From the sequence record SRR20825006_1652: a DNA stretch of 34,942 nt; one strand, 5' to 3'. The notes below the pieces were generated by a model. The model was not told the DNA's origin, did not search any database, and was given only the letters and a program-made list of their open reading frames with translations. Below are positions 2,037 through 33,399 of the stretch, one piece after another. Each line of letters starts with the position of its first letter. Position 1 is the stretch's first letter. The position numbers and the translations under genes were made by a program.

Positions 2037-3422
2037 CTACTCCTTGCACGCCGCCTCGCCATCGATCAAGGCGCGCGTTCCGAGCGCGACCCCTTCAGAC
2101 GGCGTGAACTCCGCCTTCTTGGCCAGCGTCACGTTCCCCTTCTTGTCGAAGGTTGCCTCGAGGCCGGACTTGCTGTTGATCGGGAGCTTGTCGTTGACGA
2201 GATCCTTGGGCAACTCGTCATCAGGTATCGCGCCGATGCGGCCGCGGTAGTACGTATAGGACTCGATCATGTCGAGCATCAACATCGGCTTGCCACCCTG
2301 GATACCGAACACGGTCAACTCCTTGGTGGTGGAGTCCTCCTCCTCGTCGAGCCCCATGTCGGTGTCGCGGCGCGCGTGCTCGGTGCGCACGATAATCTCT
2401 GGCTCGCCGCCAGGAACCAGCTGCTCGAAGCTGACCTCGAGCTCGTCGAGATCCTCGAAGATGCCGAACGCCCCGGGGTTGTAGACCCAGACGAGCGGCG
2501 TGGCATACCAGGTGTTGTCATACTTGATCGCGAGCATGTGATAGTCGGTCATGTCATCATCGAGGCTCATCACGAAGGTCGCGACCTCGGTGAGCTTGGT
2601 GCCGCCGGGGACCTTCTTGATCTCTGGCGCGGTCTCCTCGCTGCCATACATCACCGAGAAGCACTTTGGCTCGGGATCGAGGCCCTTCGCCATTTTACGA
2701 CATCCCGCGTCGAGGTCGGCGCCGAGCGGCGCCATCGTGCAGCGGCCAAAGAAACTATAGAGGTCCTTCTTCTCGGGCTCGCTGTCGCCTCCCTGCGTTT
2801 TCACCTTCGCCAGGCGCTCGCGCACGGTCTTGTTCTCGCGGAACGTCAGCGAGCGCTCGTAGTAATCGGCCGCCTTGCTCATATCCTTTTGCGCTTCCGC
2901 GACGCGGCCCAGGTTGTAGAGGCTCGCCCCCTTGAGCTTGTCCTCCTTGGCAAAGCGCACCGAGTCGTTGTTGGCCTGGATAGAGCGCTCGTAATCGCCC
3001 GCCAGGTACGCCGCCCAACCGATCTCGGAGAGGATGCGCGCGTTGTTCGGATCGATGGCGCGCGCCTTCTCGAAGACCTCGAGACCTTCCTTGTACTTCT
3101 TGCCCTGGACGAGCTTTCGTCCCTCGCGCAGATGCTCGCGGTATTGCTTGTTCAGATCGCGCGAGCGCCCCACGTTCTTGCTCGCGACCTCGCGGTTGGG
3201 CGCCTTCGCGGCGGGAGTTTTCTCGGCCTTCGGTGAGGTCTCGGCGCCATCCCCCTCGCTCGATGCGGAGGTCTCCGAGGTCTCTCCCTTTGGCGCCTCG
3301 GCGGTCGTCGAGTTCGAAGTGTCGCTCGAGGCTTCCTTCTCGCTCTTCTTCGAATCACAACCCGATGACAGGGCAAACAAAACACAAAGACCTATGGCGG
3401 TCACACAGCACGGACGTGTCAC
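2037..3422 (-). CDS. TPR-repeat lipoprotein
   Basis: GTG at 3422 is preceded by AAGGAG. Lipobox LSSGC, a low-complexity linker, then about 3 TPR units (FEKARAIDPNNARILSEIGWAAYLAGDYERS; SLYNLGRVAEAQKDMSKAADYYERSL). The C-terminal beta domain is unassigned. Confidence 0.8.
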   Translation of the reverse strand: MTRPCCVTAIGLCVLFALSSGCDSKKSEKEASSDTSNSTTAEAPKGETSETSASSEGDGAETSPKAEKTPAAKAPNREVASKNVGRSRDLNKQYREHLREGRKLVQGKKYKEGLEVFEKARAIDPNNARILSEIGWAAYLAGDYERSIQANNDSVRFAKEDKLKGASLYNLGRVAEAQKDMSKAADYYERSLTFRENKTVRERLAKVKTQGGDSEPEKKDLYSFFGRCTMAPLGADLDAGCRKMAKGLDPEPKCFSVMYGSEETAPEIKKVPGGTKLTEVATFVMSLDDDMTDYHMLAIKYDNTWYATPLVWVYNPGAFGIFEDLDELEVSFEQLVPGGEPEIIVRTEHARRDTDMGLDEEEDSTTKELTVFGIQGGKPMLMLDMIESYTYYRGRIGAIPDDELPKDLVNDKLPINSKSGLEATFDKKGNVTLAKKAEFTPSEGVALGTRALIDGEAACKE

Positions 3423-3494
3423 TCCCAGCTCCTTTCTGGTGAAGTTATCGGTACGCGCGCGAGGATACTCCAGCATCGCCTCGAGCAAAAGGCT

Positions 3495-6400
3495 TCACTC
3501 GATCGATACATGATAGCGCGAGCGAGACTCGACGCGCACCAGGTCGCGCTTGACCAGCTCACGCACCGCTGGTGGCAGCACCGTCACCTCGGCGTAGTCC
3601 CCGCGTATCACCGCGACCAGGGCGGCGAAGATCTTTGGCGAGCCTCCGAGTTGCCGCGCTCCCTCGGCGTGCAACCTCGCGAGCGCGTCGGCGCTCGCGC
3701 TCGCGTGCTCGTCGAGCAGCCCCGCGAGCGCATCCGGGATCGCCTCGCCAGTCACCGCGAGCAAGTGCACGAGCGCGCGCCGCGTGTGCGCGAACTGCGT
3801 GGCGAGCGCGCTCGTTTCGTGCTGCCGCAACGTCGCGAGCTCTCGCTCGACCTGCGCCTGCGTCGGCATGTTCATCAATGTCTCGGTGTTCCATGGCCCC
3901 GACGAAGGCGCGATGGGAGGCAGCGCGCTCTTGACGTCCGCGCTGCTCGCGGCCGAGGAGGGCGCCATCGGTCGAATCGGCCCCTGCGCGCCAACCGCCG
4001 CATCGAGCGGCATCAGGGCAGGACCCGTCGCGCTCGGCAACACCACGAGCGAGACGAGGTGATCCGGGTTCGCCACGACACCCTCGTCGAGCACCCAACA
4101 CGAGGACACCATCGCCGGTAACCCCAGGTGCCTCAGGATCTCGGTCAACACCGTGTTCAGCTCGTAACAGATCCCTCGCCCCTGCGTCTCATCATCCCTC
4201 GATGCGTGCAAAATCTCGAGGTGGTGGTTTCCTTCGCCAGCCCGCAACCTCGCCTTGGCCTTGGCGACCTCCGGGATCTCCATAAACCCATCGTCATAGA
4301 TGTAATTGGTCTGCACGAACGCCTGCGCCGAGAGCGCCAACTCCCAGGATGACATCGCGCTGTTTCGCTTGGATTCGATGAACCTTCGCGTCGTCGGCGG
4401 CAACTCTCGAAGCTCCAGGGTTGGCTGCAAGAGCGCATCGGGCGGGTCCAGATGTCCCACGTCGCTCGTCAGAATGGGAGGCTCCAGAAGATCGATCGTG
4501 TAGCTGATCTTGACCGGTTTATCCGCCTCGAGGTGCAGCCAGAGCGACCCGTCTTGCCGCTGCTGCGCGCGCATCGAACCTTCTCCCTCGATGATCCTCG
4601 GCGCGCCCGATGGCCTTGCGTATAGCGGCAGCGGGAGCTGGCTGATTCCCGGCGCGATTGTCCCGTGGAAGAGCACCTCTCGCCCGAGAGGTCTCGACTT
4701 CCCGTACCAATCGACAGGCGGTGAGCCTGCCGGCAACCAGTGCTGTGACGCCTCGTCGAAGGTCGCGCCCATCACCTGCGGCGCATAAAGGTGTGGTTTG
4801 GGCAACACCCTCGGCTCGAACCGCAGCGCGATCTCGAGCGGCTTCTTCGAGATGTTTCGGATGCTCTCCTGATTGACCCAGAGCTGAGGTTGGATCGTCG
4901 TCTCGGGCCTCAGCGGGTTCGTCCCTTGCTTTGTCCAACTCGGCGCGTCGACCTCTGGCGCGGTCCCTGCGTTAAAGCCCAACCAACGCTTGAACCTCCC
5001 CCAGGTCGAGTGATCCTCGGGCCGGAGTTGAGGCTCGGGCGCGCTCCGCACCGCTGGGAGCGTCTCCTCGATCACGCGCTCGAAATCAGCGGCTGCTTCC
5101 GGGTTCCTGGACTCGTCCACATACGTCGCGACCCTGGATTGTGGCGCGTCGAAATCACTCGAGTCATTCGACGCGGGCGCTCCCATATCACCGAGCAATT
5201 CTTCGATGAGCTGCGCCGAGGACTCCGAGGACATGATCCCTTCTGCCCAGGATCGATCTCCAGAGGGCGCGAGGACCTGCCCTGGATCGGGCGCCGACGT
5301 TGGCGTCAGCCCGCGATCTTCTGGTCTTGGCGGATGCTCGAGCTGCTCCTGTTCTGTCATCTCGGACGCTGGCGCTTGCTTGACGCTCTCTTCCAGCCAG
5401 TCTGTATCGCTGGTGCTCGCGCGATCGTCAGGATCTTCGAACAGATCGGTAGGGATATCATCGAGGCGCTTCGCCGCCAGGATCGTGGTGAGCGCGTCGA
5501 GCAGTGACTCGCCAGGTTCCTCCACACCCAACATCGCGAGCAAACCGGGCGACACCTTTGCCGACCACGCACCGCGCCCGTTCTCATCCGTTGGAAGCAG
5601 CGCCGCAGTTGCCTCGCGATCTCGCCAGCGCTCGAAGTCCTTGCCCTTGAGCACCGGGAAGCGCTTCACGAGCCGACGATCGAGGTTGTAGTCGAGCACT
5701 TGCCCGAGCCGCTCGGCGAGCTCGTCTGAGGGTTTGCGCGCGGCCGCGACGGCGGGGTAGTGGCGCCTGTCGAGGTGCATCTCCATCTTCTCGAAGTCGC
5801 CGAGCGTCAGGAGCAAGGTCACGACCTCGATCACAGCGTCTTGCTCTGGCCCCTCGTAGATCGCTGGCATCAACCCGAGCGCGAGCCCGGTGGCGCGATC
5901 TCTCGGCGCCACGAGCGCCTCGATATCGACGAGCAGCGCCTTGTTCGCGGCATCCCAGACCGCATCACTGTCCGCGCTGGCGCGCCCGATCCCATCGAGC
6001 ACGTAGGTCACCTCCAGCGAGGCGATCGCGCGGATGGGAGAGGTCGTCGCCAACCCCGCCAGCCGATCCTCGATCCTCCATCTGCCGCGCGTGCTCCCGA
6101 GCTTGAGCTGGATGCGCGGCGCCACCTCACTCAACGCGCGCAACAGCCCGCGCAGAGGTCTGATTCTTGGCAGGAACTCTTCTGTGCGATCCTCTCCAGC
6201 GTTGGCGTTGGTCTCGACGCGGTGCGCCTCGCGCAGCAACCTCAACCCCACGCGTTGATAATAGCGATCGACATCCTCTTGCTGGCCTCTCGCGCCAGAG
6301 CGCGCGACATAGAACGTGGACGTGCTCGCGAAGAGATCCTCCAGGTCCGGCGTGTCACTGCGCAGCAAGAGCTTGTGGTCAGGTGGGAGCAGCCGCCAGC

Positions 6401-9400
6401 TCGCCGCTTTATCTTCTGTGTTCGGTCCCTTCCTCGCGCATAGAATCAATGTCTCGTGTGGGCGATGAAGCGTGCTTGTCTTACCGAGGTAGGCGTAGTT
6501 CGCGAGCAGCATCGCCGGGATCGCGCCATCCGAGAGCACCTCTTTATCCCCCGAGTTCGCCACCTGCGCGCTGATCTGTGCCAGAAAACGATGCACGAAA
6601 GCAGGGCTCGGCTCGCGCTCGATGCCAAACGCGCGGCACAACGTCGGGTAGTTCGATAACCCCTGGCTCCAGTAGCCTCGCCGCGCGCCGAACATCTCCA
6701 TATGTCGACCGCCCAGCACGTCCAGGTGATGAAAGTGCTGGCCGTCATCGGTGTAGACCCAGGCGAGTTCAGCGAGCGTCTGAGTGAGGTGCTCGCTGGT
6801 GAGCTTGTTCTCTTTCAGGCAGAGCTCGAGCCATTGATACACGGGAGGAGGCACCGCGGCGCTCCGCGTCTCGCGATCGGCCAGGTGTCGCCTGACCTGC
6901 TCGAGCGTGACATCGCGCGTCGTCTTGAACCCGATCCTCCTCGCTAGATCCTCGCCCAGGCGCTCGGTGATGTCGGTGTGGGCGTACTCCTCCTTGAAGT
7001 CTCCGATGAGCGAGCGGGCGTTGAGCGAGTCGATAAACACCTCGCCAGGGCGCCTCAAACAGCGCGTTCCATCGAGCACCCACGGGGTTTGATGGAGCGC
7101 CTGTAGCGTCGTGATTCCCTCGACGCCGCGGTCGTTTAGCCTCGCCAGTAAGGTCGAAAGCCCCAGCGCGGTCTGTTCGCTGATATCGCTCGTCGCGAGC
7201 ACGTGCTCGATGTCTGCCAGCGCAGGCATCTCGCGCACACCGAGCACGGATAACAACCCGAAGTCATCCTGGTTGTATCGCTTCGGGTTGGGGACGGGTT
7301 GCCTGGCGCCCCAGATTTGATGCGTGGCCTCCTGCATCGCGCGGGGCACCGCGAATAGCGCATTCGCGCGCACGAAGTCCCCCGTCATGCTCTCGACCTC
7401 CAAGCCATGCCTGGAGAGGATGCGATACATCTCCTTCTTCCCGACGCGCTCGATGCGACCGGCGAGGTAAGAGAAGATCTTGTAGGCGGCCTCGTGGTCC
7501 TTGTCTTGGGTCGCCTCCTTGTAGGTGGGGACCAGGTGCTCGTCACACAACTCTTCGAGCCCCACGGCATCATCCAAACCGAGGTGTCGCGACAGCATGT
7601 GCACGATCTCGGCGGGGATCTCGCCAGAGGGTCGCCAGTCCACGCCGAGGTCCGGCAAGTTCGGGTCGAGGACGAGGTTGCGCGTTGGAAGCAAGCTCCC
7701 ACGTTCAGTGGGGAAGAGCTTGCCTTGCTCGAGCATCTGGCGACAGTCAGGATCCGAGAAGATCTCGCGTTCGTGGTGCTCAAGCCATGCATACAGATTC
7801 TCACGGCGCGTCTTGTCACCGAGCACGGGGTGTTGATCGACGCGCTCCGCGCTCTCTTCTCCCTGACGCAGCGCGGCGATGACCGACTTCATCTCGAGCG
7901 GCTTCCCGATCTTCTGTGCCAGCTCATCCCCGAGCGCCTGCGCGAACTCGGGCGCCATGAGCGTTTCACTCGCGGGGAGCTTCTCGAGGAGTTTGCTCGT
8001 CGCTTCGCTCGCGATGGATAGGCGTTGCTTGACCAGCCTCCCGCGCACGTTGATTTGCGGGAGTGTGGTCTTTTGAGTGATGGCGTCGCGAGCCATCGCG
8101 ATGGCTTTCGCCAGTGAAGAGGCGTTCGAGAGCAACCCTCGCTGCTGCCTGAGTGGTTTTCCAGGCTGTGCGTTGTTCTCGAGCAATTCTAGCAAGAATT
8201 CGGACGCGGACCTCGTCTCGAAGAGTTGGGATAGCGAGAGCAGCGTCTCCGGGGTCTTCGCGCTGACGCTGTCCACCAACGGACGCTCCAGGGCATCCTC
8301 GGGGATCAACTCATCGAGCACGCCTGGTGTGATAAGTTGCGAGGAGCATGTCACACCACCTGCGCGCGTCTCCCAGATCATCAGGTTGGAGAGGGGAGCG
8401 CCTCTGAGCCCGGCGAGTTTCCTGGCGTGTTGTGTAAGCCATGGGAGGATCGCGTCGAGCGCTTCCGGTCGCTGGAGAGGATTCGCGCGCTCTTCTTTCG
8501 GCGCGATTCGGGGGAGCGTGGCGAGGTTTTGGAGCAATCCTTCGAGCCCCATGACCTTTTGCCTGGCGCTGGCGAGCAACCCCTCGATCTTGGAGCGGGT
8601 CGTCGCAGAGAGGCGCCTGTAACCCGCCGCAGCCATGACAGGTGCAGCGTGCGAGTTGAACTGATAGAGCCTGTCCAGCTCCAGCGGTTGCTCCGAGCTC
8701 CAGTCACCGAGCGCTCCGAGCTTTCCGTCATCCCCGACATAGAGCGGCGTGTCGAACAAACGCGTCAGATCCTCGCTCCCGAGCTGGGCGCGGTTGGCCT
8801 CGAGGTAATCCAGGGCATCGCCGCGCTTCGGGCCGAGCAGTGGCAGGTCATCTGGAGATGTCGCCGCGAGGATGGCCTCTCTCTCTGCCCAGAGATCATG
8901 CGCCAGTGATTTCGCGTTCGCCTCCTGGAGAAAGAGGTCGAGCCCGAACGCTGCGACGACGCGCCTGCTGGTGCTCTCTCGCTCGATGAAGTGCCTCGGC
9001 GCTCCGGTTGTCGGGGGCTTGTGATAGAGCGCGCGAAGCTCTGTCGGGGCGTCATGCAGCTCGAGGAGCCGCTTGATACGTCCGCGATCATCGAGAAAGA
9101 GCGGGAGCGTCTCGAGCAGGGCGCGAGATCTGGTCCCGAGCTTGACGTCATCTCCCAGCAGGAGCGCGTGGAGCGCGTCGATGAGCTCGGGGGATGATGA
9201 GACGCGCAGCGGCGCGCTGGCGTCAGGCGCAAAGCCTGACAGCACCGCCGCCGGTCCGAGCACCTCTGCGCCCATCTCGCGCACGTGCGCCATGGCGCAC
9301 ACTTGCTCGTCGAGGAAGTTCGCGTCCGGGAAGAACGCCTTGACCTCGAGCGGGGAGGGGAGGAAGGCGCGCTCTTCTGCGGGCACTCCCTTGAGCTTCC

Positions 9401-12245
9401 TCGGGTTTCCGTCGCTGTCAGGCCAGATGTCCAGCGTCGCGAACGCGTCGCGGGTGGTGTCCGCGATCTGTCGACGCGAGGCTTCGAGCAACCTCTGGAG
9501 CGCGAGCAACGTCTCTCTATCTCGGGTGATGAAGCCCGCGTGTCGCAAGTCTGCGAGCAGGATCTCGAACCCGAGCGCCGGAGGATTGATACGCGCGAGC
9601 AGCGCATCCTGAGCTTCGGAGACGCCGAGCGTGACGAGCGGACGGCGCATCCCATAAAAGCTCGCGAGCTGCGCTTGCTCCTTCGGCACAACCAGGGCGC
9701 CGACGCGATCTGTAGGATCGCTCGCGAGCCTGTGGAGCTTTCCATCTTGTGCCACGAACAGCGGTAACTTCGCGGCGCGCATTTGCAGCGCCCAGTTCGA
9801 CCGAGAGAGCCACGCCTGGATCGCCTCGAGCTTCTCGAGCGATCCTGGAAACCCCACAGCGTCAGCGCTCTCGAGCATGTCTGCCTTGCCGATGACGTGC
9901 TCCAGATCCTTGAGCAGTTGCTCGCCGGTCAATCGCGTCACCCCGAGCCGCGTCAGCAGCGCCGTGGTGCGCGAGGTGATGGAGTTATTGTCAGCGTCTT
10001 CATCGCTCTGCTCGGGAGTTCGTGCGGGGTCGGTATCACTGGCGAGGTCAGGGTGAAGCATCTGCCGCACGCCTTGATAAATCGTCCTCAAGCCAGGTTC
10101 TGGGACGAGGATACTCTTCGCGTCGTGGAGCTTTCCTCTCTCATCCGGGAAGAGCGCGATCTCTCGGAGCTTCTTCTTGAGCGAGATCGCCTGGAGCGAG
10201 TTCTTGCTGCGGTCGAGCTCCTCGAAGCCATCGAGCAGGATGTCATGGATGCGCGAGATGAGCTCGATGTCACCGGCTCGCGCGGCGGCGAGGGGTCTGT
10301 TGTCATCGGCATCCGCAGCGAGCGCGTGCGCGATGATCCCGATGAACCCGTCGAAGTCGAGCTCGCGCACGCCGAGCTGCAAGGCGACCTCGCGCTCTCG
10401 TGGTGAGAGCGTCTCGTCGAGCAACCAGAAGGGGTGGTTGTTGTTGATGTTGGAGAACTTCGAGAGCGCGCCGAGCGGGAAGCTCGCGCCAGGTTCGAAC
10501 AGCGCGCAGATTTCTGGCGAGGCCACCCTGAGCTGGATCGCCATGCGAAGCGTCCCATCTCGGGCGGGAAGGATCGCGCTGCTGGCGAGCTCCCTGGTGA
10601 TCTTTTCCGGGAGCGGCTCGAAGACCTCGGATTTGATCTCGCGCGCGAGAGGCAGCACCGACAGGATGCCTCGCCCGAGGTTTGGTGGTTGCTCCTCGCG
10701 CTGGATGATCCTCTCGAGCGCGCGGCGGATTTGCGTGGGCACGTTGCTCACGATCCATTGATTCCAGTCAGACTCCGGGTTCACGCGCTCGCGATCGACG
10801 GGGACATCGAAGTGTCCCTGGACGAAGAAGCGAAGCCCGGATTGCTCCTCGGTCGGGAGATAACTGTAGACCGTGGCGCTCTCGGGCGGCGCTGGTATCG
10901 GCACGCCGTGCTCGTCGAGCGAGACGCCGACCATGATCAGCGTGCTGTCCGCGCGTCCTGCGGCGCGTTTGCCGCGCGTGTACTTGTAGACATCATCCTG
11001 GATAATGTAGCGCCTGCGCAGGTTCGCCGGGCGCTGTTCGATGGTCGAGATCCCGCGCTCGTCCGGCAACTCCTCGACCGCCGCCCATTTTTGCGGGCCT
11101 CCTTCGACGCGTTCGGTGAGCTCGATCGTCAGCAGGTCGACCCCGCGCAACGTGAACAATACGCAAGGATCGAGCGCGCGCGCCATGGCGTGCAACCTGG
11201 CAGGCGTGCGCGCTGGATCATCGGGATCTTTGAGGGGAAGGATCAGGACGGTGCCATCCTCGGGGAGATCTGCTGGGCGATCACGCAGCAGCTTTGGCAC
11301 GGACACATCGGCGATCTCGAACTGGAACGCGTCCGAGTAAATCCTCGGCCGCGCGGTGACTTCGTAGACCGACTTGAAGCCGACGCCAAAGAAGCCGATC
11401 TGATCCTTGCGCTTGGTGGTCTGGCCGATGCTCGTGACGCCGACGAGATCGCGAGCGTCGAACGGGTTGCCATCATGCCAGACGATGATCCTGTCCACGT
11501 CAAAGATCACGCGCCAGTGCTTCGCGCCCGCGTCCTCGGCGTTCTGGAGCAGCTCGATAAGGAAGTGTCCTGGGTCGGTGTAGACGCGCGTGGAGAGGAG
11601 CTCCTCGGCGTTCGACTGCGAGATCGCCTTCGGGGCGTTCCCGAGCGTCTCGATGACTGCCCTGGCCATGGCCGCGCGCGCTGTGTCGAAGCCCTCGAGG
11701 CACTCCTGGGAGTGCGCCCTGGCGATCTCTCGAAGCTCGGGGACCGCGCGACCAGATAACTGCGCGAGCATATCACTCGAGAGCGCGCTGAGGTCTCCTG
11801 TTTGGAGCGCATGTCTTGTGGCTTGAATGATGTTTGCCACGTGCGCATCCCGCGCCTCGGAAAAGTTGTGCTTCAGGGAGCGATCGATCAGACACATCGA
11901 CGAGATGCGCTCGACGGGCACGACGCGCAGCATCTCGAGCAGCGCTTCGCACAGATCCTGGCCGCGCTCGGAGGACTCGGAGGCGCGCTCGAGCATCGAG
12001 CGCACCACCCGGTGGACCGCGGTCTCTGGCTGGTCGAGCAAGAACTTCGAGAAGACGACGCGGTGCTCGTTGTGCGCGAGCCAACCCTTGGCAAGCAGCT
12101 CACCACAGAGCCAGGCGAGCGGCGCCCAGTCGCGGATGCTCGCCGCCAGTTTGAGCAGCTCCCCGGCGGGCGTTTTGTCAAAGTTTCCAGAGAGGTGCTC
12201 GAGTTGTTCGTCGAGCGGTAGTGCGGCGAACGCATCAGGTGTCAT
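3495..12245 (-). CDS. Giant (~2,916 aa) protein: sacsin-type GHKL/Hsp90-like ATPase, internal repeats and C-terminal transglutaminase-like domain
   Basis: GHKL motifs ELLQNAEDAGA, HDGNPFDARDLVGVTSIGQTTK and IGFFGVGFKSVYEVT-x-PRIYS, plus the sacsin-like FFVQGHFDVPVDRE-x-WNQW. The C-terminus has GICYELN...PDHLVSLV...PLDAA. ATG 12245 has GAGG 7 nt upstream (the ORF track starts at 12284). Confidence 0.85.
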   Translation of the reverse strand: MTPDAFAALPLDEQLEHLSGNFDKTPAGELLKLAASIRDWAPLAWLCGELLAKGWLAHNEHRVVFSKFLLDQPETAVHRVVRSMLERASESSERGQDLCEALLEMLRVVPVERISSMCLIDRSLKHNFSEARDAHVANIIQATRHALQTGDLSALSSDMLAQLSGRAVPELREIARAHSQECLEGFDTARAAMARAVIETLGNAPKAISQSNAEELLSTRVYTDPGHFLIELLQNAEDAGAKHWRVIFDVDRIIVWHDGNPFDARDLVGVTSIGQTTKRKDQIGFFGVGFKSVYEVTARPRIYSDAFQFEIADVSVPKLLRDRPADLPEDGTVLILPLKDPDDPARTPARLHAMARALDPCVLFTLRGVDLLTIELTERVEGGPQKWAAVEELPDERGISTIEQRPANLRRRYIIQDDVYKYTRGKRAAGRADSTLIMVGVSLDEHGVPIPAPPESATVYSYLPTEEQSGLRFFVQGHFDVPVDRERVNPESDWNQWIVSNVPTQIRRALERIIQREEQPPNLGRGILSVLPLAREIKSEVFEPLPEKITRELASSAILPARDGTLRMAIQLRVASPEICALFEPGASFPLGALSKFSNINNNHPFWLLDETLSPREREVALQLGVRELDFDGFIGIIAHALAADADDNRPLAAARAGDIELISRIHDILLDGFEELDRSKNSLQAISLKKKLREIALFPDERGKLHDAKSILVPEPGLRTIYQGVRQMLHPDLASDTDPARTPEQSDEDADNNSITSRTTALLTRLGVTRLTGEQLLKDLEHVIGKADMLESADAVGFPGSLEKLEAIQAWLSRSNWALQMRAAKLPLFVAQDGKLHRLASDPTDRVGALVVPKEQAQLASFYGMRRPLVTLGVSEAQDALLARINPPALGFEILLADLRHAGFITRDRETLLALQRLLEASRRQIADTTRDAFATLDIWPDSDGNPRKLKGVPAEERAFLPSPLEVKAFFPDANFLDEQVCAMAHVREMGAEVLGPAAVLSGFAPDASAPLRVSSSPELIDALHALLLGDDVKLGTRSRALLETLPLFLDDRGRIKRLLELHDAPTELRALYHKPPTTGAPRHFIERESTSRRVVAAFGLDLFLQEANAKSLAHDLWAEREAILAATSPDDLPLLGPKRGDALDYLEANRAQLGSEDLTRLFDTPLYVGDDGKLGALGDWSSEQPLELDRLYQFNSHAAPVMAAAGYRRLSATTRSKIEGLLASARQKVMGLEGLLQNLATLPRIAPKEERANPLQRPEALDAILPWLTQHARKLAGLRGAPLSNLMIWETRAGGVTCSSQLITPGVLDELIPEDALERPLVDSVSAKTPETLLSLSQLFETRSASEFLLELLENNAQPGKPLRQQRGLLSNASSLAKAIAMARDAITQKTTLPQINVRGRLVKQRLSIASEATSKLLEKLPASETLMAPEFAQALGDELAQKIGKPLEMKSVIAALRQGEESAERVDQHPVLGDKTRRENLYAWLEHHEREIFSDPDCRQMLEQGKLFPTERGSLLPTRNLVLDPNLPDLGVDWRPSGEIPAEIVHMLSRHLGLDDAVGLEELCDEHLVPTYKEATQDKDHEAAYKIFSYLAGRIERVGKKEMYRILSRHGLEVESMTGDFVRANALFAVPRAMQEATHQIWGARQPVPNPKRYNQDDFGLLSVLGVREMPALADIEHVLATSDISEQTALGLSTLLARLNDRGVEGITTLQALHQTPWVLDGTRCLRRPGEVFIDSLNARSLIGDFKEEYAHTDITERLGEDLARRIGFKTTRDVTLEQVRRHLADRETRSAAVPPPVYQWLELCLKENKLTSEHLTQTLAELAWVYTDDGQHFHHLDVLGGRHMEMFGARRGYWSQGLSNYPTLCRAFGIEREPSPAFVHRFLAQISAQVANSGDKEVLSDGAIPAMLLANYAYLGKTSTLHRPHETLILCARKGPNTEDKAASWRLLPPDHKLLLRSDTPDLEDLFASTSTFYVARSGARGQQEDVDRYYQRVGLRLLREAHRVETNANAGEDRTEEFLPRIRPLRGLLRALSEVAPRIQLKLGSTRGRWRIEDRLAGLATTSPIRAIASLEVTYVLDGIGRASADSDAVWDAANKALLVDIEALVAPRDRATGLALGLMPAIYEGPEQDAVIEVVTLLLTLGDFEKMEMHLDRRHYPAVAAARKPSDELAERLGQVLDYNLDRRLVKRFPVLKGKDFERWRDREATAALLPTDENGRGAWSAKVSPGLLAMLGVEEPGESLLDALTTILAAKRLDDIPTDLFEDPDDRASTSDTDWLEESVKQAPASEMTEQEQLEHPPRPEDRGLTPTSAPDPGQVLAPSGDRSWAEGIMSSESSAQLIEELLGDMGAPASNDSSDFDAPQSRVATYVDESRNPEAAADFERVIEETLPAVRSAPEPQLRPEDHSTWGRFKRWLGFNAGTAPEVDAPSWTKQGTNPLRPETTIQPQLWVNQESIRNISKKPLEIALRFEPRVLPKPHLYAPQVMGATFDEASQHWLPAGSPPVDWYGKSRPLGREVLFHGTIAPGISQLPLPLYARPSGAPRIIEGEGSMRAQQRQDGSLWLHLEADKPVKISYTIDLLEPPILTSDVGHLDPPDALLQPTLELRELPPTTRRFIESKRNSAMSSWELALSAQAFVQTNYIYDDGFMEIPEVAKAKARLRAGEGNHHLEILHASRDDETQGRGICYELNTVLTEILRHLGLPAMVSSCWVLDEGVVANPDHLVSLVVLPSATGPALMPLDAAVGAQGPIRPMAPSSAASSADVKSALPPIAPSSGPWNTETLMNMPTQAQVERELATLRQHETSALATQFAHTRRALVHLLAVTGEAIPDALAGLLDEHASASADALARLHAEGARQLGGSPKIFAALVAVIRGDYAEVTVLPPAVRELVKRDLVRVESRSRYHVSIE

Positions 12246-12331
12246 CGGATGACCTCTTGCAACAACTTGTGCTGTGACAGGCATCCTTGATACACCATGG
12301 TGTGCCTCGGGGCGATCATGGATTCGAGGGC

Positions 12332-12370
12332 AAAAGAGGAGGGCGGGTTTGTGAATACAAACCCGCCCTC
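12332..12370 (-). terminator. Intrinsic terminator after the pirin gene
   Basis: 14-bp perfect stem GAGGGCGGGTTTGT/ACAAACCCGCCCTC (12339-12370) with a 4-nt loop, followed on the minus strand by CTCTTTT. Confidence 0.75.
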
Positions 12371-17907: not shown

Positions 17908-18005
17908 GTAGAGAGCGCTTACTTTCCGAGCTGACGAAACATCCCGGGGCTTTCTGCCGAAAACCCTCTCGAGCGCCAATGCAGGCGTGTCGTGAGGGTT
18001 TTTAT

Positions 18006-19019
18006 ATGTCCAAGAGCGCAGATTATGATGGGGCGTACCGGCGGTTGTTCTCCAACCCCGAATTGTTGGAAGACCTGGTCCGTTCGTTTATCGGTGAGGA
18101 GGTCGCGGCCAAGCTCGATTTTGGCGAGGTCGACGCGATGGAGACGACCTCTCGCACACCGGACCTGGAGAAGCGGGAGGGAGACCAGATCTGGCGCATC
18201 CGAAGAGTGGATGGCGCTGACTTTTATCTGTTTCTCTTCCTGGAGTTTCAATCCAGCAATGATTTTACGATGCCCGTGCGTCTTTTTTCTTACACTTCGA
18301 GGTTTTATGATGTGTTGATGAAGCAGCAGGGCGATGTCGAGTCACTGCGCTTCTCTCCCATGTTCGCGGTGGTGATTTACAATGGCGTCTCGAAGTGGAG
18401 CGCGAAGGAGTCCTTTGAAGAACTCCTCGATGTCGACGAGTCCTCCGAGCTCTGGGAGTATCAACCGAAATTAAGGTATCGCCTGGTCGATGCGGCCAGA
18501 GCGTTACCGGACAAGGAGAGCATGACATCGCTGATCTTTCAGCTCGAGCATGCATCGAGCAAGGAGGCTGTCGGCAAGCGCCTCGATGAGTTTCGAGAGA
18601 AGCTGGTCGCTTCGGGAAACGCGAGTCTCATCGAGGATGTCGCGATATGGATCGAAGCTGTGTTGGAGCGTAAGCCTCACGGGCATAGCCCGACAAAAGA
18701 ACAGATCGAACACTTTTTGGAAGGAAGTACGATGGGGACACACAAACTCGGTATCGACCTGCTCTTTGACAGGTTGGAAGAAGAGGCGAGCGAGAGGGGG
18801 CTCGCGAAGGGGATGGAGCAAGGTCTCGAGCAGGGCCAGAAGTCTGGGATGCGTCAGGTGCTCGGGACGCTCCTCGAGCAGAAGTTCGGGGAGGATAAGG
18901 AGCGCGCCGCCCGGCTCGCGCTCCTCGATGAAGATGCGCTTCGGGCGGCGTCCACGTTGATCCTCGGCGCTGAGACTGAAGATGTCTTCTGGTCCGAGCT
19001 CGATGATGCCCTGAAGTAG
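18006..19019 (+). CDS. Rpn/YhgA-family PD-(D/E)XK nuclease (recombination-promoting nuclease / putative transposase)
   Basis: YDGAYRRLFSNPELLEDLV, REGDQIWRI, FLEFQSSND-x-MPVRLFSY, VVIYNG-x-W, and the C-terminal ERGLAKGMEQGLEQGQKSG repeats followed by LLEQKFG. SD GAGG before ATG 18006. Confidence 0.88.
   Translation: MSKSADYDGAYRRLFSNPELLEDLVRSFIGEEVAAKLDFGEVDAMETTSRTPDLEKREGDQIWRIRRVDGADFYLFLFLEFQSSNDFTMPVRLFSYTSRFYDVLMKQQGDVESLRFSPMFAVVIYNGVSKWSAKESFEELLDVDESSELWEYQPKLRYRLVDAARALPDKESMTSLIFQLEHASSKEAVGKRLDEFREKLVASGNASLIEDVAIWIEAVLERKPHGHSPTKEQIEHFLEGSTMGTHKLGIDLLFDRLEEEASERGLAKGMEQGLEQGQKSGMRQVLGTLLEQKFGEDKERAARLALLDEDALRAASTLILGAETEDVFWSELDDALK
18732..19019 (+). CDS. Putative in-frame internal small protein (RpnS-type antitoxin, 95 aa)
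   Basis: In-frame ATG 18732 is preceded by purine-rich GGAAGGAAG (18719-18727), just upstream of the E-x-G repeats. This is where internal starts occur in characterised Rpn genes. Confidence 0.55.
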   Translation: MGTHKLGIDLLFDRLEEEASERGLAKGMEQGLEQGQKSGMRQVLGTLLEQKFGEDKERAARLALLDEDALRAASTLILGAETEDVFWSELDDALK

Positions 19020-19025
19020 ACAGGT

Positions 19026-21440
19026 TTAGCGGCCGAGCGCGACGACCTCGTGCTCGGCGAACAGGGTGCTCCACATGATCAGCGCGTCCCCTGGCAGCTC
19101 GCTCCAGCGCGCCGGTTTGATCGTGCAGTTTGCAGGCAAGCGCGCCACATCATCTCGGATGTCCGCGAGCGAGCCATCCTCGCAGACACGAACAAACTTC
19201 ACGTGGCCGCCACGGTCGTCTTCGACCTGCCAGAGCACACGTTGGCGACGTGATCGAATCACCGGATGGTTTAACCCCTGAACCCATTCGAAGCGTTTCC
19301 ACTCGGTGTTTTCTGCCATCGCTTCGAGCAATAACTCGGTGTACACCTTCGACAAGCGCTCGACCTCTTTTTTGGCTCGTCTGCGCGCATGAGAATGCGC
19401 CGAGTTAGGGTGATAGATCGACACTTCGCGCCACGCTCCTTCGCGGTATTGGCTAAGGAGCACATCATCGTCGCCGTCGAGTTCGTAGCAAAACGAGATC
19501 CCCTCTTCCTCGAAGTGGCATTTGCCGTTTCGCGCGATGCCCAACTCGGGGAGCATGTTCTCGATCATGCCGAAGTAACTCTGGCCTCGCTCGCGCGCGG
19601 CGCGCTCGAGCGCGCTGTCTCTCCACACTGCAGGCCGACGCTGCTTGCGCCGCCACATCCAGTCATCGAACAGCAGCCGCAGCCCCTCCGAGTCAGGGTG
19701 ACAGGAGAGGGCGCGTTGGACCCACCGAGGTTGCTCGGCGTAGTAATAATAACTTCCTGGCGAAGCGCCGCGCTGGTGCATCTCCGAGCGCAGCATATCG
19801 ATCGCCGTCTCCTGCCCGAGCAACGCCCCTGCGGTCACCATCCATTGATATTGGCTCGGAGAGTCCTGGCATGCCCAGATGCCTTGCAGGATGAGCGCCA
19901 ACAGGTCACGGGAGTCCTCGGTGAAGTAGGCGCGCATCATCTCGACTTCAGGGCGGTTGCGCTTTGACGCCTCCTGCAAGAGGCGCATGACGCCAAGCAT
20001 CGCTTGCTTACCAAGGTATGCGCCTTCCTCGGTTTCGAGTGGTTCGATGGCGGTCTTTGGTAAGGACGGCGGGTAGGGCGCAGCGAGCCCTCGTTTGCTC
20101 CAGTACTGGAGCCAGTCAGGCATCTCCTCGTATGTCAGCTCTCGATGTAGTTTCAACGCGCGCCTCTGTGGTCTCTCGATCCGTTCGAATATCTCGTGAT
20201 CTCCTTTCAGGTGCTCTCTTAACAGGTCTTCGTGACCTCGTTCTGCGTAGGATACGAGGATCTCGGCAGCGAGGTCCTGGTGTGCCGAGGAGTCATCGAG
20301 CAAGTGCTCGACGAGCGTGCTCACAGCGTTCGCTCCTTCGCGTCGGAGCCAACGCAATGCTCTGCCATGCATGCGGTCTTGTGGGGCGACGCTCGAGGCG
20401 ATGACCTCGAGCACGAGCGGTGTCACCTCTGGCATATGCAGATGGAAGATCAGGTTCCAGTGCTCCTTGCCCCACCTGAACGCGAGTCGTTTTTCGATCT
20501 GCGCGAACAAGGTGCCGCAGTCCTCCAAGCCCCACCTGGCGATCTGGGTGAGCGCCGTCAATGGTTGAAAGTGAGCGATCGCGGGGCTCTCGTAGACGAA
20601 GTGATCGAAGAGCGCGCGATCTTCGATGATGCGCATCAAACGAATGTAGAGCTCTCCCAGTTGGGGCATTCGCGGGTGCTCGCAGAATTTCTCCAGCACG
20701 ATGGCGAGCCCTTCCTTGCTTGGCAGGCTTTCGACGACCCGAGTGAGGAGCGCGACCGAGAGATCCTCGACATCGCGGTGTTCTCGCATGGCATCCGCCA
20801 CGATCGAGCTGATGCGTGCTTTGGCCCTGGCATCCAGAGGTCGCAGCTTACAATTCTCGAAGTCGACCTGTCGCAAGAGCAGCTCAGAGAACGGGCCTCT
20901 GAGCGCGAATTCGAGCACATCGTCTAGAGGATAGAGCCTCGAGAGCACGAGCACCGGGAAGATAACCAGCGCGTGGATCTGTGTGTGCTGGTGTTTGCTC
21001 GGATCAAAACACTGCGCGCGTCGATAGTGCGAAGCTGTGAGCTCGAAGGCATCTTCTGCTGTGAGCGTAGCGTCTTCATCGAGTTTCTCGATCCAGGCGG
21101 AGTCCTGCCGGTCACCTTCGAAGATGCGAGGATGTGTCAAGAACCGGAGCAGCAGTCGCAGCTCCTGTGGGGAGACCACCGCGGCGCGGGTGTAGAGGTG
21201 ATGAGCGTGCCCGTGAATGCTCATGTAGTGGCCCGAGTGAGTTTCGGGGGGGCGTTCGTAGGTCTGCCTGAGCTGGTCGATCACCGCTTCGCGATCAAAG
21301 GGCACCGTCACGATCGAAGACGGAAACTCCTGTGATGGGAGGCGTAGCCTGGTTTCCGAGAGTGTGTGGAAGCGAGTGATCTGCGTGGTGAGCAGTGTGC
21401 TCGTGATCGGTGTGTTGTCTGTCTTTTTTCCTGTCATCAT
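19026..21440 (-). CDS. DUF4132-like domain-containing protein
   Basis: The C-terminal LLEAMAENTEWKRFEW...HPVIRSRRQRVLW...FVRVCEDGSLADIRDDVARLP...ELPGDALIMWSTLFAEHEV resembles DUF4132. The N-terminal part is helical and unassigned. Confidence 0.68.
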   Translation of the reverse strand: MMTGKKTDNTPITSTLLTTQITRFHTLSETRLRLPSQEFPSSIVTVPFDREAVIDQLRQTYERPPETHSGHYMSIHGHAHHLYTRAAVVSPQELRLLLRFLTHPRIFEGDRQDSAWIEKLDEDATLTAEDAFELTASHYRRAQCFDPSKHQHTQIHALVIFPVLVLSRLYPLDDVLEFALRGPFSELLLRQVDFENCKLRPLDARAKARISSIVADAMREHRDVEDLSVALLTRVVESLPSKEGLAIVLEKFCEHPRMPQLGELYIRLMRIIEDRALFDHFVYESPAIAHFQPLTALTQIARWGLEDCGTLFAQIEKRLAFRWGKEHWNLIFHLHMPEVTPLVLEVIASSVAPQDRMHGRALRWLRREGANAVSTLVEHLLDDSSAHQDLAAEILVSYAERGHEDLLREHLKGDHEIFERIERPQRRALKLHRELTYEEMPDWLQYWSKRGLAAPYPPSLPKTAIEPLETEEGAYLGKQAMLGVMRLLQEASKRNRPEVEMMRAYFTEDSRDLLALILQGIWACQDSPSQYQWMVTAGALLGQETAIDMLRSEMHQRGASPGSYYYYAEQPRWVQRALSCHPDSEGLRLLFDDWMWRRKQRRPAVWRDSALERAARERGQSYFGMIENMLPELGIARNGKCHFEEEGISFCYELDGDDDVLLSQYREGAWREVSIYHPNSAHSHARRRAKKEVERLSKVYTELLLEAMAENTEWKRFEWVQGLNHPVIRSRRQRVLWQVEDDRGGHVKFVRVCEDGSLADIRDDVARLPANCTIKPARWSELPGDALIMWSTLFAEHEVVALGR

Positions 21441-21546
21441 GCCTCCCCTCGGTCGGGGTGGGGCGGTTGTGAAAGAGCGCCGCCGCGGTTCATTTTGAAC
21501 AAGGGGGAAGTGCGGGCGTCAAAAAGAATGGCGCATAGGCTTGGTT

Positions 21547-21574
21547 TTGTTCCCTCGAGATCTCGAGGGAACAA
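21547..21574. repeat. 28-bp perfect palindrome in a divergent intergenic region
   Basis: TTGTTCCCTCGAGA|TCTCGAGGGAACAA with no spacer. Confidence 0.85.
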
Positions 21575-21597
21575 GCGCGAGGGCGTCGCGGGTATTC

Positions 21598-21626
21598 TTG
21601 ACAGCCCTCGGGCATAGGTTCACTCT
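21598..21626 (+). promoter_or_regulatory. Putative sigma70-type promoter for the 21672-26227 operon
   Basis: TTGACA (21598-21603), 17-nt spacer, CACTCT (21621-21626). The -35 is perfect and the -10 is degenerate. Confidence 0.4.
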
Positions 21627-21671
21627 GCGACCCCACACGAATCGACAACCTTTCTTTGGAGTGTGAAGATC

Positions 21672-22772
21672 ATGAGGCTTAGAGACCTCCTGGCAGGCGC
21701 CGCGATGGCGTTGACCTTGACCGCAGTGATTCCCACCGTCGCCGTCGCCGAAGAAGGCGCAGAGGCGCTCGGTGCCATCGATACGAGCACGATCCCTGCG
21801 ACAAAGCATGGGAAGATGTCCTCGGAGCAACGCGCCATTTTCTATGGCGCCAAGGGGGACCCGCCCGCCAAGGAGCTTCTCGGTGTCAACGAGGACTACG
21901 CTGGCAGGAGTTACCTCGCTGGTGATGAGTGGAATTTGCACCTCACCCACGAGCACATCAAGGACGTGGGCGGGATCTACGTCGGCGTCGGCGCTGACCA
22001 GGGATACCTGCTCGCGAGCTGGGCGCAGGCCGAATACGCCTACCTCATCGACTATGATGCTCGCGTTGTCCTGACGCACAAGATCTATCGCTCCTTCTTC
22101 TTGCGCTCCAAAACACCCAAGGAGTTCGTCAACCTCTGGAAGAAGTCCAACTCGGACAAGGCCCTCGCGATCATTCGTAAGGATTACGCCGACGACAAGG
22201 ATCTCGGCGAGCTCGAGAAGGTCTACAAGGAGTGGCGACGACGCATCTACAGCCGCCACACGCGGTTGAACAAAAAGAGCAAAGAGACCGGCATCAAGGT
22301 CTACACCAATGACCAGAAGCTCTACGATTACGTGCGTGGCATGATCGCCACCGATCGTATTCGCCCGATGAGCGGCAACCTGCTCGATGACGAGGGCTTG
22401 ATCGCTATCGGCGAAGCCTCGCGCAAGCTCGGGACGCCCGTGCGTTTGTTCTACGTTTCGAACGCGCAAGAGTACTGGGCTTACCCGGATCAGTACCGCA
22501 AGAATATCGCGGGGCTCAATTTCGACGAGCAGTCGCGGGTCATCCACACGCTCTCGACATGGAGCACGAACAAGGATTACCGCTACGTGGTTCAGCCCGG
22601 CCTCAACTACCAGGAGTGGATGACGGCGGATTGGGTGCGTAAGGTGTATTACATGGTGCCGCGTCGTAAGCTCGAAGGGCCCGAGGATATCGACTTCATT
22701 TACTTCGATCGCGAACTCAAAGAGGTCGAGGCACGTCGCGCGAAGAAGAAAAAGAAGAAGAAGAAAAAGTAA
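21672..22772 (+). CDS. Exported hypothetical protein with a methyltransferase-like Gly-rich motif and poly-Lys tail
   Basis: Signal peptide (LLAGAAMALTLTAVIPTVAVA), GGIYVGVGADQGY...YLIDYD, GNLL and FYVSNAQEY; ends in KKKKKKKKK. It resembles the Leptospira LIC_10091-like family (recollection, unverified). Confidence 0.72.
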   Translation: MRLRDLLAGAAMALTLTAVIPTVAVAEEGAEALGAIDTSTIPATKHGKMSSEQRAIFYGAKGDPPAKELLGVNEDYAGRSYLAGDEWNLHLTHEHIKDVGGIYVGVGADQGYLLASWAQAEYAYLIDYDARVVLTHKIYRSFFLRSKTPKEFVNLWKKSNSDKALAIIRKDYADDKDLGELEKVYKEWRRRIYSRHTRLNKKSKETGIKVYTNDQKLYDYVRGMIATDRIRPMSGNLLDDEGLIAIGEASRKLGTPVRLFYVSNAQEYWAYPDQYRKNIAGLNFDEQSRVIHTLSTWSTNKDYRYVVQPGLNYQEWMTADWVRKVYYMVPRRKLEGPEDIDFIYFDRELKEVEARRAKKKKKKKKK

Positions 22773-22783
22773 GCCGGGGAGAC

Positions 22784-25276: not shown

Positions 25277-25282
25277 TTGGTT

Positions 25283-26227
25283 ATGCGTGAGTCGATCGTG
25301 TTGTTGTCTGTGTGCGCGTTGTTGCTTGGCTCGCTCTCTGTGGCCAGCGCCCAGGATGCTGGGAAGAAGTCAGCCGATGATGTCAGCAAGAAGGACGTCG
25401 TGGAGGACGCTGCTCCCGAGGGTTACAGTGAGATCCCTTGTGGTGATGCTCCCGAAGGGATGAGCTGTGTTCCTGGAGGGGCGTTTCTGCGTGGGCATGA
25501 CTCGAAGGACAAGAACGCCAGGCCGCAGCAAAAGATCTGGCTGACGACGTTTTATATCGACCAGCGCGAGGTCACCAACGCCGCCTACAAGGCGTGCGTC
25601 AAGGCGGGCAAATGCGATGAGGCGGGGCCTCGATACCGAGGTTACAGCGATGACGAGCAGCCGATCACGGGCGTCAGTTGGTTTGACGCCAGGAAGTTCT
25701 GCGAGGCGCAAGGGAAGCAGCTCCCGACCGAGTCTCAATGGGAGAAGGCTGCGCGAGGCACAGAGGGCGAACTCAATCCCTGGGGGAACGAGGCGGCGAC
25801 GTGCGAGCGCGCCGTGATCAAGAACAACAAGGGGAGGGCGTGCGGCGTCAAGAAACCAGGAAGTAAGCCCGAGGCGGGGCGCATCTGGAAGGTCGGAGAG
25901 AAGCCCGCAGGCCGCTACGACCTCTACGACATGTCCGGCAACGCCGAGGAGTGGACGCTCGACTGGTACTCGCCGAGCTGGGAAGCCTGCGGCGAGGCGT
26001 GCCAGGGGCTCGATCCGAAGGGCCCCTGTGATGGTGCAAAGAGTTGTAAGGGGTATAACAAGCGCGTGCTGCGCGGAGGATCGTGGTACTGGCCAGCGGC
26101 CAATGCGACGGGGATTCATCGCCGCGCGAACGTCCCGAGCAATCGGCCCTACCATCACTTCGGGTTTCGATGCGCGGCGACCGTGGAGCAGGCCAAGGCG
26201 TTGACCGCGAGCGGCGAGAAAAAGTGA
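25283..26227 (+). CDS. Exported FGE-sulfatase (SUMF1/formylglycine-generating enzyme-like) domain protein
   Basis: FYIDQREVTNAAY, PITGVSWFDARKFC, LPTESQWEKAARG, LYDMSGNAEEW, RVLRGGSW and GFRCA, with a signal peptide. It lacks the catalytic Cys pair after RGGS that true FGE has. Confidence 0.9.
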   Translation: MRESIVLLSVCALLLGSLSVASAQDAGKKSADDVSKKDVVEDAAPEGYSEIPCGDAPEGMSCVPGGAFLRGHDSKDKNARPQQKIWLTTFYIDQREVTNAAYKACVKAGKCDEAGPRYRGYSDDEQPITGVSWFDARKFCEAQGKQLPTESQWEKAARGTEGELNPWGNEAATCERAVIKNNKGRACGVKKPGSKPEAGRIWKVGEKPAGRYDLYDMSGNAEEWTLDWYSPSWEACGEACQGLDPKGPCDGAKSCKGYNKRVLRGGSWYWPAANATGIHRRANVPSNRPYHHFGFRCAATVEQAKALTASGEKK

Positions 26228-30749: not shown

Positions 30750-30837
30750 TTTGTTTAAAGTCGAGGGATGAGACATGCCTCGTGACAGGGACGTTTGGGG
30801 TGTAGGAGGAGGTCGCGACTCACGAGAGGAAGGAACG

Positions 30838-31956: not shown

Positions 31957-31977
31957 GACCGACACTGATTTTTGCTT

Positions 31978-32565: not shown

Positions 32566-32574
32566 GTTTTCGCG

Positions 32575-33207: not shown

Positions 33208-33246
33208 GTGGGCGTGCGTATTTCTGCATGACCTGCGTCGTGCCGA

Positions 33247-33328
33247 GCAAAACAAGCCGCGCAGAAGTTTTTGTGAACGGTCGAGATGACTGGAACGTCC
33301 ACAAAAACTTCTGCGCGGCTTGTTTTGC
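33247..33328. terminator. Long hairpin (29-bp perfect inverted repeat), probable terminator
   Basis: 33247-33275 is the reverse complement of 33300-33328. Small inner GTC/GAC hairpin; ends in TGTTTT. Confidence 0.75.
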
Positions 33329-33337
33329 GGGCCGAGG

Positions 33338-33360: not shown

Positions 33361-33399
33361 CTCGGTGTTCATCGAGGTGGATTAATCGAAAGAGGTAGA

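Follow-up and report, generated by a model that had tools for sequence, protein, structure and literature searches.

The stretch of DNA described here, 34,942 nucleotides of sequence record SRR20825006_1652 (referred to below as the window), carries on its minus strand one giant gene whose product very probably joins the chassis of the Tiamat, NO VEIN and sacsin proteins to a C-terminal end with the transglutaminase fold of TgpA, held on a tether of about 150 residues. Its family, which is sizeable, unnamed and unstudied, represents an effector variant among the Tiamat-like proteins, a kind defined only recently. The gene lies in a single uninterrupted open reading frame (ORF) at 3495..12284 (minus strand; 2929 aa; stop codon at 3495-3497), and residue numbers throughout refer to this 2929-aa ORF. 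The ATG at 12245 is the second Met of the ORF, residue 14, and a start there would give a protein of 2916 aa. A Shine-Dalgarno-like AAGAGG is found about 7 nt 5' of this ATG, and no ribosome-binding motif is present at a usable distance from the ATG at 12284. Since the ATG at 12245 is preceded by AAGAGG and a database protein that is 99% identical to the window protein is 2916 aa long, the start at 12245 is favoured and the true gene is probably 3495-12245 (minus strand), which is the extent that an initial annotation, made from the sequence alone, had given it. The features of the protein, from the N-terminus to the C-terminus, are as follows.

11643..12245, minus strand, residues ~14-214: N-terminal family-specific domain, conserved across homologues by the alignment consensus.
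10335..11642, minus strand, residues ~215-650: sacsin/Tiamat-type GHKL (Hsp90-like) ATPase with a transducer-like extension, from profile matches and motifs.
6465..10322, minus strand, residues 655-1940: cryptic tandem repeats, about ten or eleven, of 100-140 residues each, from hhalign.
5784..6188, minus strand, residues 2033-2167: Wss1-like metalloprotease-type fold without HExxH, from an AlphaFold2 (AF2) model and VIA-align.
4950..5417, minus strand, residues ~2290-2445: disordered acidic/Ser/Pro-rich linker, from composition and the predicted local distance difference test (pLDDT).
3966..4919, minus strand, residues 2456-2773: TgpA-like module, a beta-sandwich (~2486-2600) and a transglutaminase-like core, from AF2, Foldseek, VIA-align and Pfam.
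3498..3965, minus strand, residues 2774-2929: C-terminal tail of a long helix, a small helical bundle and a terminal beta-hairpin, from the secondary structure of the model.

The assignment of the C-terminal module was made by structure comparison. Residues 2440-2929 gave an AF2 model with a pLDDT of 87.8 and a predicted template modelling score of 0.88. The top match of this model by Foldseek was the periplasmic domain of Pseudomonas aeruginosa TgpA (6g49; E 4.4e-9; template modelling score 0.61 on the target) and the second was a putative cysteine protease of Cytophaga. By VIA-align against all PDB representatives, TgpA was again first (6g4h; Z 15.7, 259 residues aligned, root-mean-square deviation 4.1), followed by 3isr at Z 9.8, and TglA, factor XIII, LapG, TG3 and TG2 were among the lower rows at Z 6-7.6. 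TgpA thus stood well above the next rows in both aligners, and the reading of this domain in the initial annotation as a transglutaminase/papain-clan fold was borne out. The Pfam family Transglut_core (PF01841) matched all 26 of the aligned family members at E <= 0.1, the best at 2.8e-12. When the module was compared with PDB sequences, as a single sequence and as a 26-sequence profile, only unrelated proteins were found (best E 0.4-1.1) and TgpA was not among them; the fold was found by structure comparison and Pfam only. The ESM Atlas returned only Transglut_core clusters, at 0.87-0.88 and hence below the 0.9 level, a lead which is consistent with the fold and nothing more. The predicted fold and the conserved Cys-His-Asp order described below both place the module in the transglutaminase-like superfamily (PF01841, papain-like clan).

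The candidate catalytic residues are Cys2706 in GICYELN (starting at residue 2704; 4169-4167), His2742 in PDHL (starting at 2740; 4061-4059) and Asp2761 in PLDAA (starting at 2759; 4004-4002), exactly where the initial annotation had read a triad. Conservation was counted after the C-terminal parts of 161 family sequences had been aligned to the family hidden Markov model (HMM), the positions being judged from sequence. Cys2706 was kept in 158 (the exceptions being two substitutions and one gap), His2742 in 159 (two gaps), and position 2761 was Asp in 149 and Glu in 8, that is 157 of the 161, with three gaps and one Arg. G2702, G2704, E2708, R2718, W2730 and D2741 were conserved to the same degree. 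It could be argued that the module instead serves for binding or dimerisation and has no enzymatic activity, in the manner of the inactive folds of Rad4/XPC and protein 4.2, and that it takes the place of the Tiamat nuclease dimer. Inactive transglutaminase folds are known, as the available text of PMC10318531 describes, XPC and band 4.2 are among the low-Z rows of VIA-align, and the C-terminal domain of Tiamat is predicted in the main text of 10.64898/2026.09.30.754977 to double as a dimerisation element. However, we consider this very unlikely because the triad is kept to such an extent in sequences of only about 30% overall identity and because the six other residues are equally conserved, which together look like the pattern of a working active site. 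A homodimer prediction with two copies of the 490-aa module scored 0.16 and 0.04 against a mark of 0.32, and it was used as evidence neither way. It is probable, at a lower level of confidence than the architecture itself, that the module is an active thiol enzyme coupled to the ATPase. Just ahead of the catalytic Cys there is also a family-specific motif, GNHHL…LHA (4210-4245, residues ~2681-2692), and His2693, which is outside the canonical triad, is kept in 156 of the 161 sequences; a metal site, an oxyanion hole or a regulatory function may be considered for it. The C-terminal tail beyond the module is shortened in one sub-branch of the family, as seen in the alignment. That this tail is an XRE/C-protein helix-turn-helix was considered and rejected, the helical matches being weak and non-specific (Z 5-6.2).

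At the other end of the protein, nine PADLOC profiles for TmtA (Tiamat) match the giant protein, the best of them over residues 214-652 (4.4e-49). Pfam SACS (PF25794) matches residues 235-326 (E 1.4e-13), which is its single match in the whole protein, and NCBIfam P_loop_sacsin matches residues 240-316 (E 3.1e-22). All four GHKL motifs are readable in the sequence, namely ELLQNAEDA with E244 (11555-11553), N248 (11543-11541) and D251, HDG at 270-272, GFFGVGF at 297-303, and GTVLILPL, and the region also holds a conserved HFDVPVDRER. In a 40-sequence alignment of homologues the motif residues are at least 90% conserved. The intact GHKL ATPase that the initial annotation had placed at about 10750-11600 is therefore present, and its coordinates fit. 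This region is 29% identical over 398 aa (E 6e-33) to a 1055-aa protein made of an ATPase and NOV_C. The N-terminal domain at ~14-214, which precedes the ATPase, belongs to no known family by Pfam, the rows obtained being non-significant (E 0.11 and 0.24).

The repeats that follow the ATPase are real but cryptic, because profile-profile comparison of segments was positive and a BLASTP self-comparison of the giant protein was blank. For the former, residues 655-1940 were cut by hand into 11 segments around a recurring Pro/Gly hairpin motif, a cut that was not blind, and hhalign gave a probability of at least 85% for 12 of the 55 pairs (best 97.5%, E 8.5e-12). Each repeat, roughly 110 residues in length, has a hairpin-like motif of the form 'hydrophobic-P-hydrophobic-hydrophobic-x(3-4)-G'. 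The long repeat region reported initially was thus demonstrated by hhalign, and it is the solenoid body of the sacsin-repeat superfamily. The PADLOC TmtA profile PDLC03969 aligns over residues 1419-2141, while Pfam DUF3684 gave no row at E <= 1 for the giant protein. An AF2 model of residues 1700-2330 (pLDDT 88.9) shows an alpha/beta unit at 2033-2167. When this unit was compared with 48,161 chains by VIA-align, the best rows were Wss1 (5xbn, Z 6.3; 5ln5, Z 5.7), followed by many zinc peptidases, all with weak scores. HExxH does not occur anywhere in the giant protein, and because of this the Wss1-like fold is presumably inactive. It was also asked whether residues ~1800-2020 are an Hsp90 middle domain, and this was rejected since the matches were non-specific (Z 3.5-4.1; Foldseek probability <=0.15). 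Between the Wss1-like fold and about residue 2290 there are helical segments, and from there on (model residue 591) the pLDDT falls below 50. Residues 2271-2440 consist of E, D, S and A at 11% each and P at 10%; both the composition and the low pLDDT agree with the acidic/Pro linker that had been noticed at about 4950-5450.

We compared this architecture with those of known systems, above all with Tiamat. The main text of 10.64898/2026.09.30.754977, from October 2026, describes 'Tiamat-like' proteins that have the Tiamat-type ATPase and core and in which the nuclease is lost or swapped for helicases, peptidases and other effectors; the variants it lists are helicase, HNH-like, Schlafen-like plus peptidase, S1, LOTUS, Het-6, CDK and SACSIN-type. 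According to the same text, the Tiamat core (the former DUF3684) is made of TPR-like folds, a 'Fold B' and an inactive Wss1-like fold. The giant protein shares with Tiamat and the Tiamat-like proteins the Hsp90/sacsin-type GHKL ATPase, the repeat body, the disordered tether to a C-terminal effector and the single-gene unit. As far as the weak structural matches go, it may also have in front of the effector the Wss1-like fold, lacking HExxH, that is described there for Tiamat, and since this fold is at the position that it has in Tiamat, we read the agreement as a sign of a shared chassis. There are differences as well. The effector of Tiamat is a PD-(D/E)xK nuclease, whereas that of the giant protein is the TgpA-like Cys-His-Asp domain; and Tiamat has merely 20-42 residues ahead of its ATPase (main text of 10.64898/2026.09.30.754977), whereas in the giant protein about 200 residues form an additional domain at the N-terminus. 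The giant protein therefore fits the definition of 'Tiamat-like' as it is worded, the HMM-score threshold of its authors aside, but it is not Tiamat in the strict sense because it does not end in the nuclease.

According to that preprint, the relatives usually end in a helicase or in a nuclease of the NOV_C/DUF3883 type, which agrees with what the initial annotation had said of sacsin-like proteins. Pfam gave no row for NOV_C/DUF3883 (PF13020) at E <= 1 in the giant protein, and unlike the relatives with ATPase and NOV_C (about 1,050 aa), the giant protein is about twice to nearly three times as long and has about ten repeats. Human sacsin and plant NO VEIN, as the available text of 10.64898/2026.09.30.755639 describes them, also have a SACS-type ATPase and then solenoid repeats. 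Sacsin, however, contains three of these units as well as ubiquitin-like, J and HEPN domains, whereas the giant protein has one ATPase-solenoid unit and gave no Pfam rows for DnaJ and HEPN and so is not sacsin proper; NO VEIN, again unlike the giant protein, ends in a NOV_C nuclease. The likeness to TgpA (PA2873 of P. aeruginosa; 6g49/6g4h) is in the beta-sandwich joined to the transglutaminase core and in a triad of the same order, with a sequence identity of only 13-16%. TgpA is an inner-membrane protein whose domain faces the periplasm, whereas the giant protein has no membrane segment and no Pfam row for TgpA_N, and it does not belong to the TgpA family in this sense.

The initial annotation had also taken the architecture to be undescribed. 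This no longer holds for the effector-swapped Tiamat-like kind as such, but it stands for the transglutaminase effector, which is absent from the main text of both preprints: the words transglutaminase, papain, cysteine and TgpA have 0 occurrences in that of 10.64898/2026.09.30.754977, whose supplementary tables could hold the family, and transglutaminase has 0 occurrences in that of the companion NO VEIN preprint (10.64898/2026.09.30.755639). A sacsin-transglutaminase fusion did not come up in full-text searches on bacterial sacsin and transglutaminase or on transglutaminase-like anti-phage defence, and the available text of a classification of papain-like enzymes (PMC10318531) makes no mention of Hsp90, GHKL or sacsin.

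The fusion is found well beyond the window. An exhaustive HMMER search with the 490-residue module against 1.84 billion cluster representatives (clusters of 50% identity) gave 188 matches at E <= 0.001, of which 124 were at E <= 1e-30. Of 160 relatives with the module, 93 have a length of 2000 aa or more, and all but two of these (91) also carry the ATPase. In the other 67, which are shorter, the module is at the C-terminal end and the ATPase is present in only one; they look like fragments, mostly, that were cut by the ends of contigs. Because 91 of the 93 long relatives with the module carry the ATPase too, a module of this kind occurs, in these sequences, essentially only in the giant ATPase fusion, and the fusion is obligate. 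When shorter proteins were searched with the ATPase region, the first 50 or so were fragments of the same family, and beyond a gap from E 1e-43 to 1e-27 came the next-nearest relatives, which measure about 1000-1200 aa and have a sacsin-type ATPase and, in some cases, NOV_C. In precomputed annotation, 16 homologues of near-equal length had the SACS label only (one also PF14446) and none had Transglut_core. Thus, the effector is hidden from routine annotation, and proteins of this family would be filed as having no effector.

By their source names or record titles, the family members come from metagenome-assembled genomes (MAGs) labelled Polyangia, Kofleriaceae, Haliangium, Nannocystaceae, Sandaracinaceae, Bradymonadaceae, Myxococcota, Planctomycetota, Obscuribacterales, Eremiobacterota, Anaerolineae and Pedosphaera, and errors of binning are possible in such labels. 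Seven related loci were obtained with the ATPase region as the query; the C-terminal protein alone found no relative among the same genome contigs. The five genomes that hold a related locus all have the module (5/5), in one copy each. It was found in 7/301 genomes of an even sample of one phylum, in 1/21 of the order of the closest locus, and in 11/101 and 9/88 genomes of two families; these counts are lower bounds since many of the genomes are incomplete. The gene is clearly not universal, and it is sporadic and single-copy. In two relatives the giant gene does not lie in a single frame. In one related locus (L003, 9287-16635) the ATPase part and the remainder are in two overlapping frames, with an IS66 transposase upstream at 4807-5934, and in another genome (G354, contig C17, ~1536228-1537215) two short frames lying next to each other each hold a part of the transglutaminase module. 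Either the genes have decayed or the assemblies are in error. The glutamyl-tRNA synthetase of the window is 33-49% identical to those of five related genomes, and no conclusion on gene transfer was drawn because paralogues exist.

No stretch resembling a signal peptide or a transmembrane segment was found in the giant protein by a hydropathy scan (the best Kyte-Doolittle mean over 19 residues was 1.55, the mark being 1.6), in agreement with the initial annotation, and for this reason the protein is predicted to be cytoplasmic. This bears on another explanation, namely, that it is an exported or contact-delivered giant protein like the polymorphic toxins, with a transglutaminase/papain-fold toxin domain at its C-terminus. 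The giant size and the papain-clan end after a flexible linker would fit a toxin, and the gene immediately downstream codes for an exported tetratricopeptide (TPR) lipoprotein. However, neither a signal peptide nor a transmembrane segment nor a domain associated with secretion systems was detected in the giant protein, its N-terminus is an ATPase of the cytoplasmic type, there is no conserved small immunity-like gene downstream, and the lipoprotein is not conserved in the relatives. We therefore regard a toxin as extremely unlikely. The TPR ORF (2037-3488, minus strand) has a lipoprotein-type signal (…LFALSSGC…) and begins a few bases past the stop of the giant gene, its real start probably lying further in. 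It was considered as a partner and rejected, and it is not counted as part of the feature because it is exported and has no homologue in the seven related loci.

Taking these results together, we propose that the giant protein is a cytoplasmic, single-chain, Tiamat-like clamp driven by ATP, which presents a captured protein to the tethered thiol enzyme; for this explanation as a whole the chances are only slightly better than even. On binding ATP, a dimer would close at its N-terminal heads, as happens in other GHKL proteins and in the Tiamat model as far as its available text describes it. A protein client or ligand would then be held by the repeat body and the pseudo-protease fold, and the Cys-His-Asp enzyme on its tether would act on it by cleavage, by glutamine deamidation or by formation of an isopeptide cross-link. 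The periplasmic domain of TgpA has a Ca-independent transglutaminase activity in vitro (PMC3507681, in its available text), but the fold alone cannot tell which chemistry applies, because the papain-like/transglutaminase fold also supports proteases, deamidases and acyltransferases (available text of PMC10318531). The gene would be accessory, with sporadic gains and losses, and the protein a variant of Tiamat whose output is protein modification and not DNA cleavage.

Several observations weigh against this proposal. The Transglut_core score of the window protein itself is 16-18.3 bits, below the gathering cut-off of 23. The match of the Wss1-like fold is weak, and Foldseek found nothing at E <= 0.001 for the model of residues 1700-2330. 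Dimerisation and gating by ATP are proposed by analogy. The low prevalence is in part an artefact of incomplete MAGs. As for a function in defence, the genes that flank the giant gene in the window and the related loci are ordinary ones, such as those for pirin, LysR, glutamyl-tRNA synthetase, NAD(P)H-hydrate dehydratase and NrpR, and no homologues of eight neighbours in the window were found in the seven related loci, that is, the neighbours are not conserved. PADLOC gave no match for 17 of 20 flanking genes and the remaining three do not indicate a defence system: among the 10 neighbours in the window there was no match for 8 and no signal of a defence island, and among 10 flanking ORFs from five related loci there was none for 9, the tenth having a generic protein-kinase domain. 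Finally, no copy of the family was found in the plasmids, phages and viral contigs that were searched. The anti-phage function that had been put forward initially was thus not supported. What the initial annotation had observed was confirmed in every particular and its structural interpretation was right, but its claim of defence is unproven, and its interpretation is overall partly supported.

These results raise the question whether the protein has a role in homeostasis instead, as a sacsin-like chaperone or scaffold of bacteria with large genomes, whose thiol enzyme would trim, deamidate or cross-link endogenous clients, for example in stress or development. The ordinary flanking genes, the lack of adjacent defence genes and the absence of copies from mobile elements (plasmids, phages and viral contigs) are in its favour, as is the fact that architecture and length are very stable among members of only 30-45% identity; roles outside defence are also described for two members of the superfamily, human sacsin and plant NO VEIN, in the available texts of 10.64898/2026.09.30.754977 and 10.64898/2026.09.30.755639. 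But only about 2-11% of the genomes sampled from lineages in which it occurs carry the gene, and by source names it is scattered over several phyla, which is unusual for a core quality-control factor; it also has no conserved partner gene such as that for a co-chaperone. We therefore consider a non-defence remodelling factor to be a possible explanation but not a likely one. The role is the least certain layer of our proposal. The relationship to Tiamat and the scattered occurrence of the gene favour conflict or stress, and its ordinary neighbours and what sacsin and NO VEIN do outside defence favour the opposite. The most likely explanation is that the gene serves a conflict or stress response, and a core housekeeping function is probably not involved; a role in defence or conflict proper is put forward tentatively, with the chances somewhat short of even.

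With regard to transcription, a G+C-rich inverted repeat, GAGGGCGGGTTTG … CAAACCCGCCCTC, followed by the T-run CTCTTTTG is found at ~12339-12370 (minus strand), between the stop of the pirin gene and the giant gene. By its sequence it looks like an intrinsic terminator that would separate the transcription units of pirin and the giant gene, and since it follows the upstream pirin gene it suggests that the giant gene is transcribed from a start of its own. An ORF at 17979-19019 (plus strand), about 5.7 kb away from the giant gene, codes for a YhgA-like (Rpn-type) putative transposase/nuclease, and it is this ORF that gave a borderline PADLOC match to C3a178 (E 0.0009). It is followed by an 804-aa protein with a C-terminal DUF4132 (19026-21440, minus strand), a 545-aa ORF with no Pfam or PADLOC match (21519-23156, minus strand) and, at 25277-26227, a gene with an FGE-sulfatase domain. 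About 21 kb away is a DarG-like macro-domain protein of 190 aa (33286-33858, plus strand; PADLOC DarG, E 6e-13, on the macro part). It is the last gene of a same-strand run at 30775-33858 (plus strand), which begins with an AAA_24 ATPase (30775-31956), an AlkB-like 2OG-Fe(II) oxygenase (PF13532; 31972-32565) and a 210-aa ORF with no assignment (32575-33207). This run may be a cluster for DNA/RNA repair or for reversal of ADP-ribosylation, or a prophage remnant.

In the related loci the immediate neighbours include an RlaP-type nucleotidyltransferase, NrpR, a HEAT-repeat protein, NAD(P)H-hydrate dehydratase, an SGL lactonase-like protein, a DUF4351 protein and an astacin-like peptidase. The DUF4351 protein is directly upstream of the homologous giant gene in one locus (L007, 7688-8674, minus strand), and DUF4351 is, we assume, typical of the YhgA-like family. 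In the same locus, two paralogues with EAD2 (effector-associated domain 2), Ser/Thr kinase and FGE-sulfatase domains (2558-4813, plus strand, and 5064-7277, minus strand) are upstream of the giant-gene homologue; one of them gave the kinase-domain match to PADLOC mentioned above. This EAD2 kinase pair hints faintly at a conflict system, in one locus out of six.

Tiamat has been validated as an anti-phage gene, and its eukaryotic relatives, sacsin and NO VEIN, are of importance in human disease and in the development of plants. In the family described here the whole Tiamat chassis appears to be kept and the end that cuts nucleic acid is replaced by a predicted protein-modifying thiol enzyme, which suggests that this chassis can direct very different outputs, and the family offers a natural experiment on whether protein clients are handled by the repeat body. 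A bolder possibility, which we consider unlikely at present, is that the family represents a new effector chemistry for prokaryotic immunity, in which a clamp of the Tiamat type driven by ATP would sense a phage protein or a cue of infection and then cross-link, deamidate or cleave proteins. If this is the case, then it would be a bacterial counterpart of the innate immune outputs that are based on protein cross-linking or on proteases, and it would mean that the sacsin/NO VEIN chassis fundamentally handles protein clients rather than nucleic acid.

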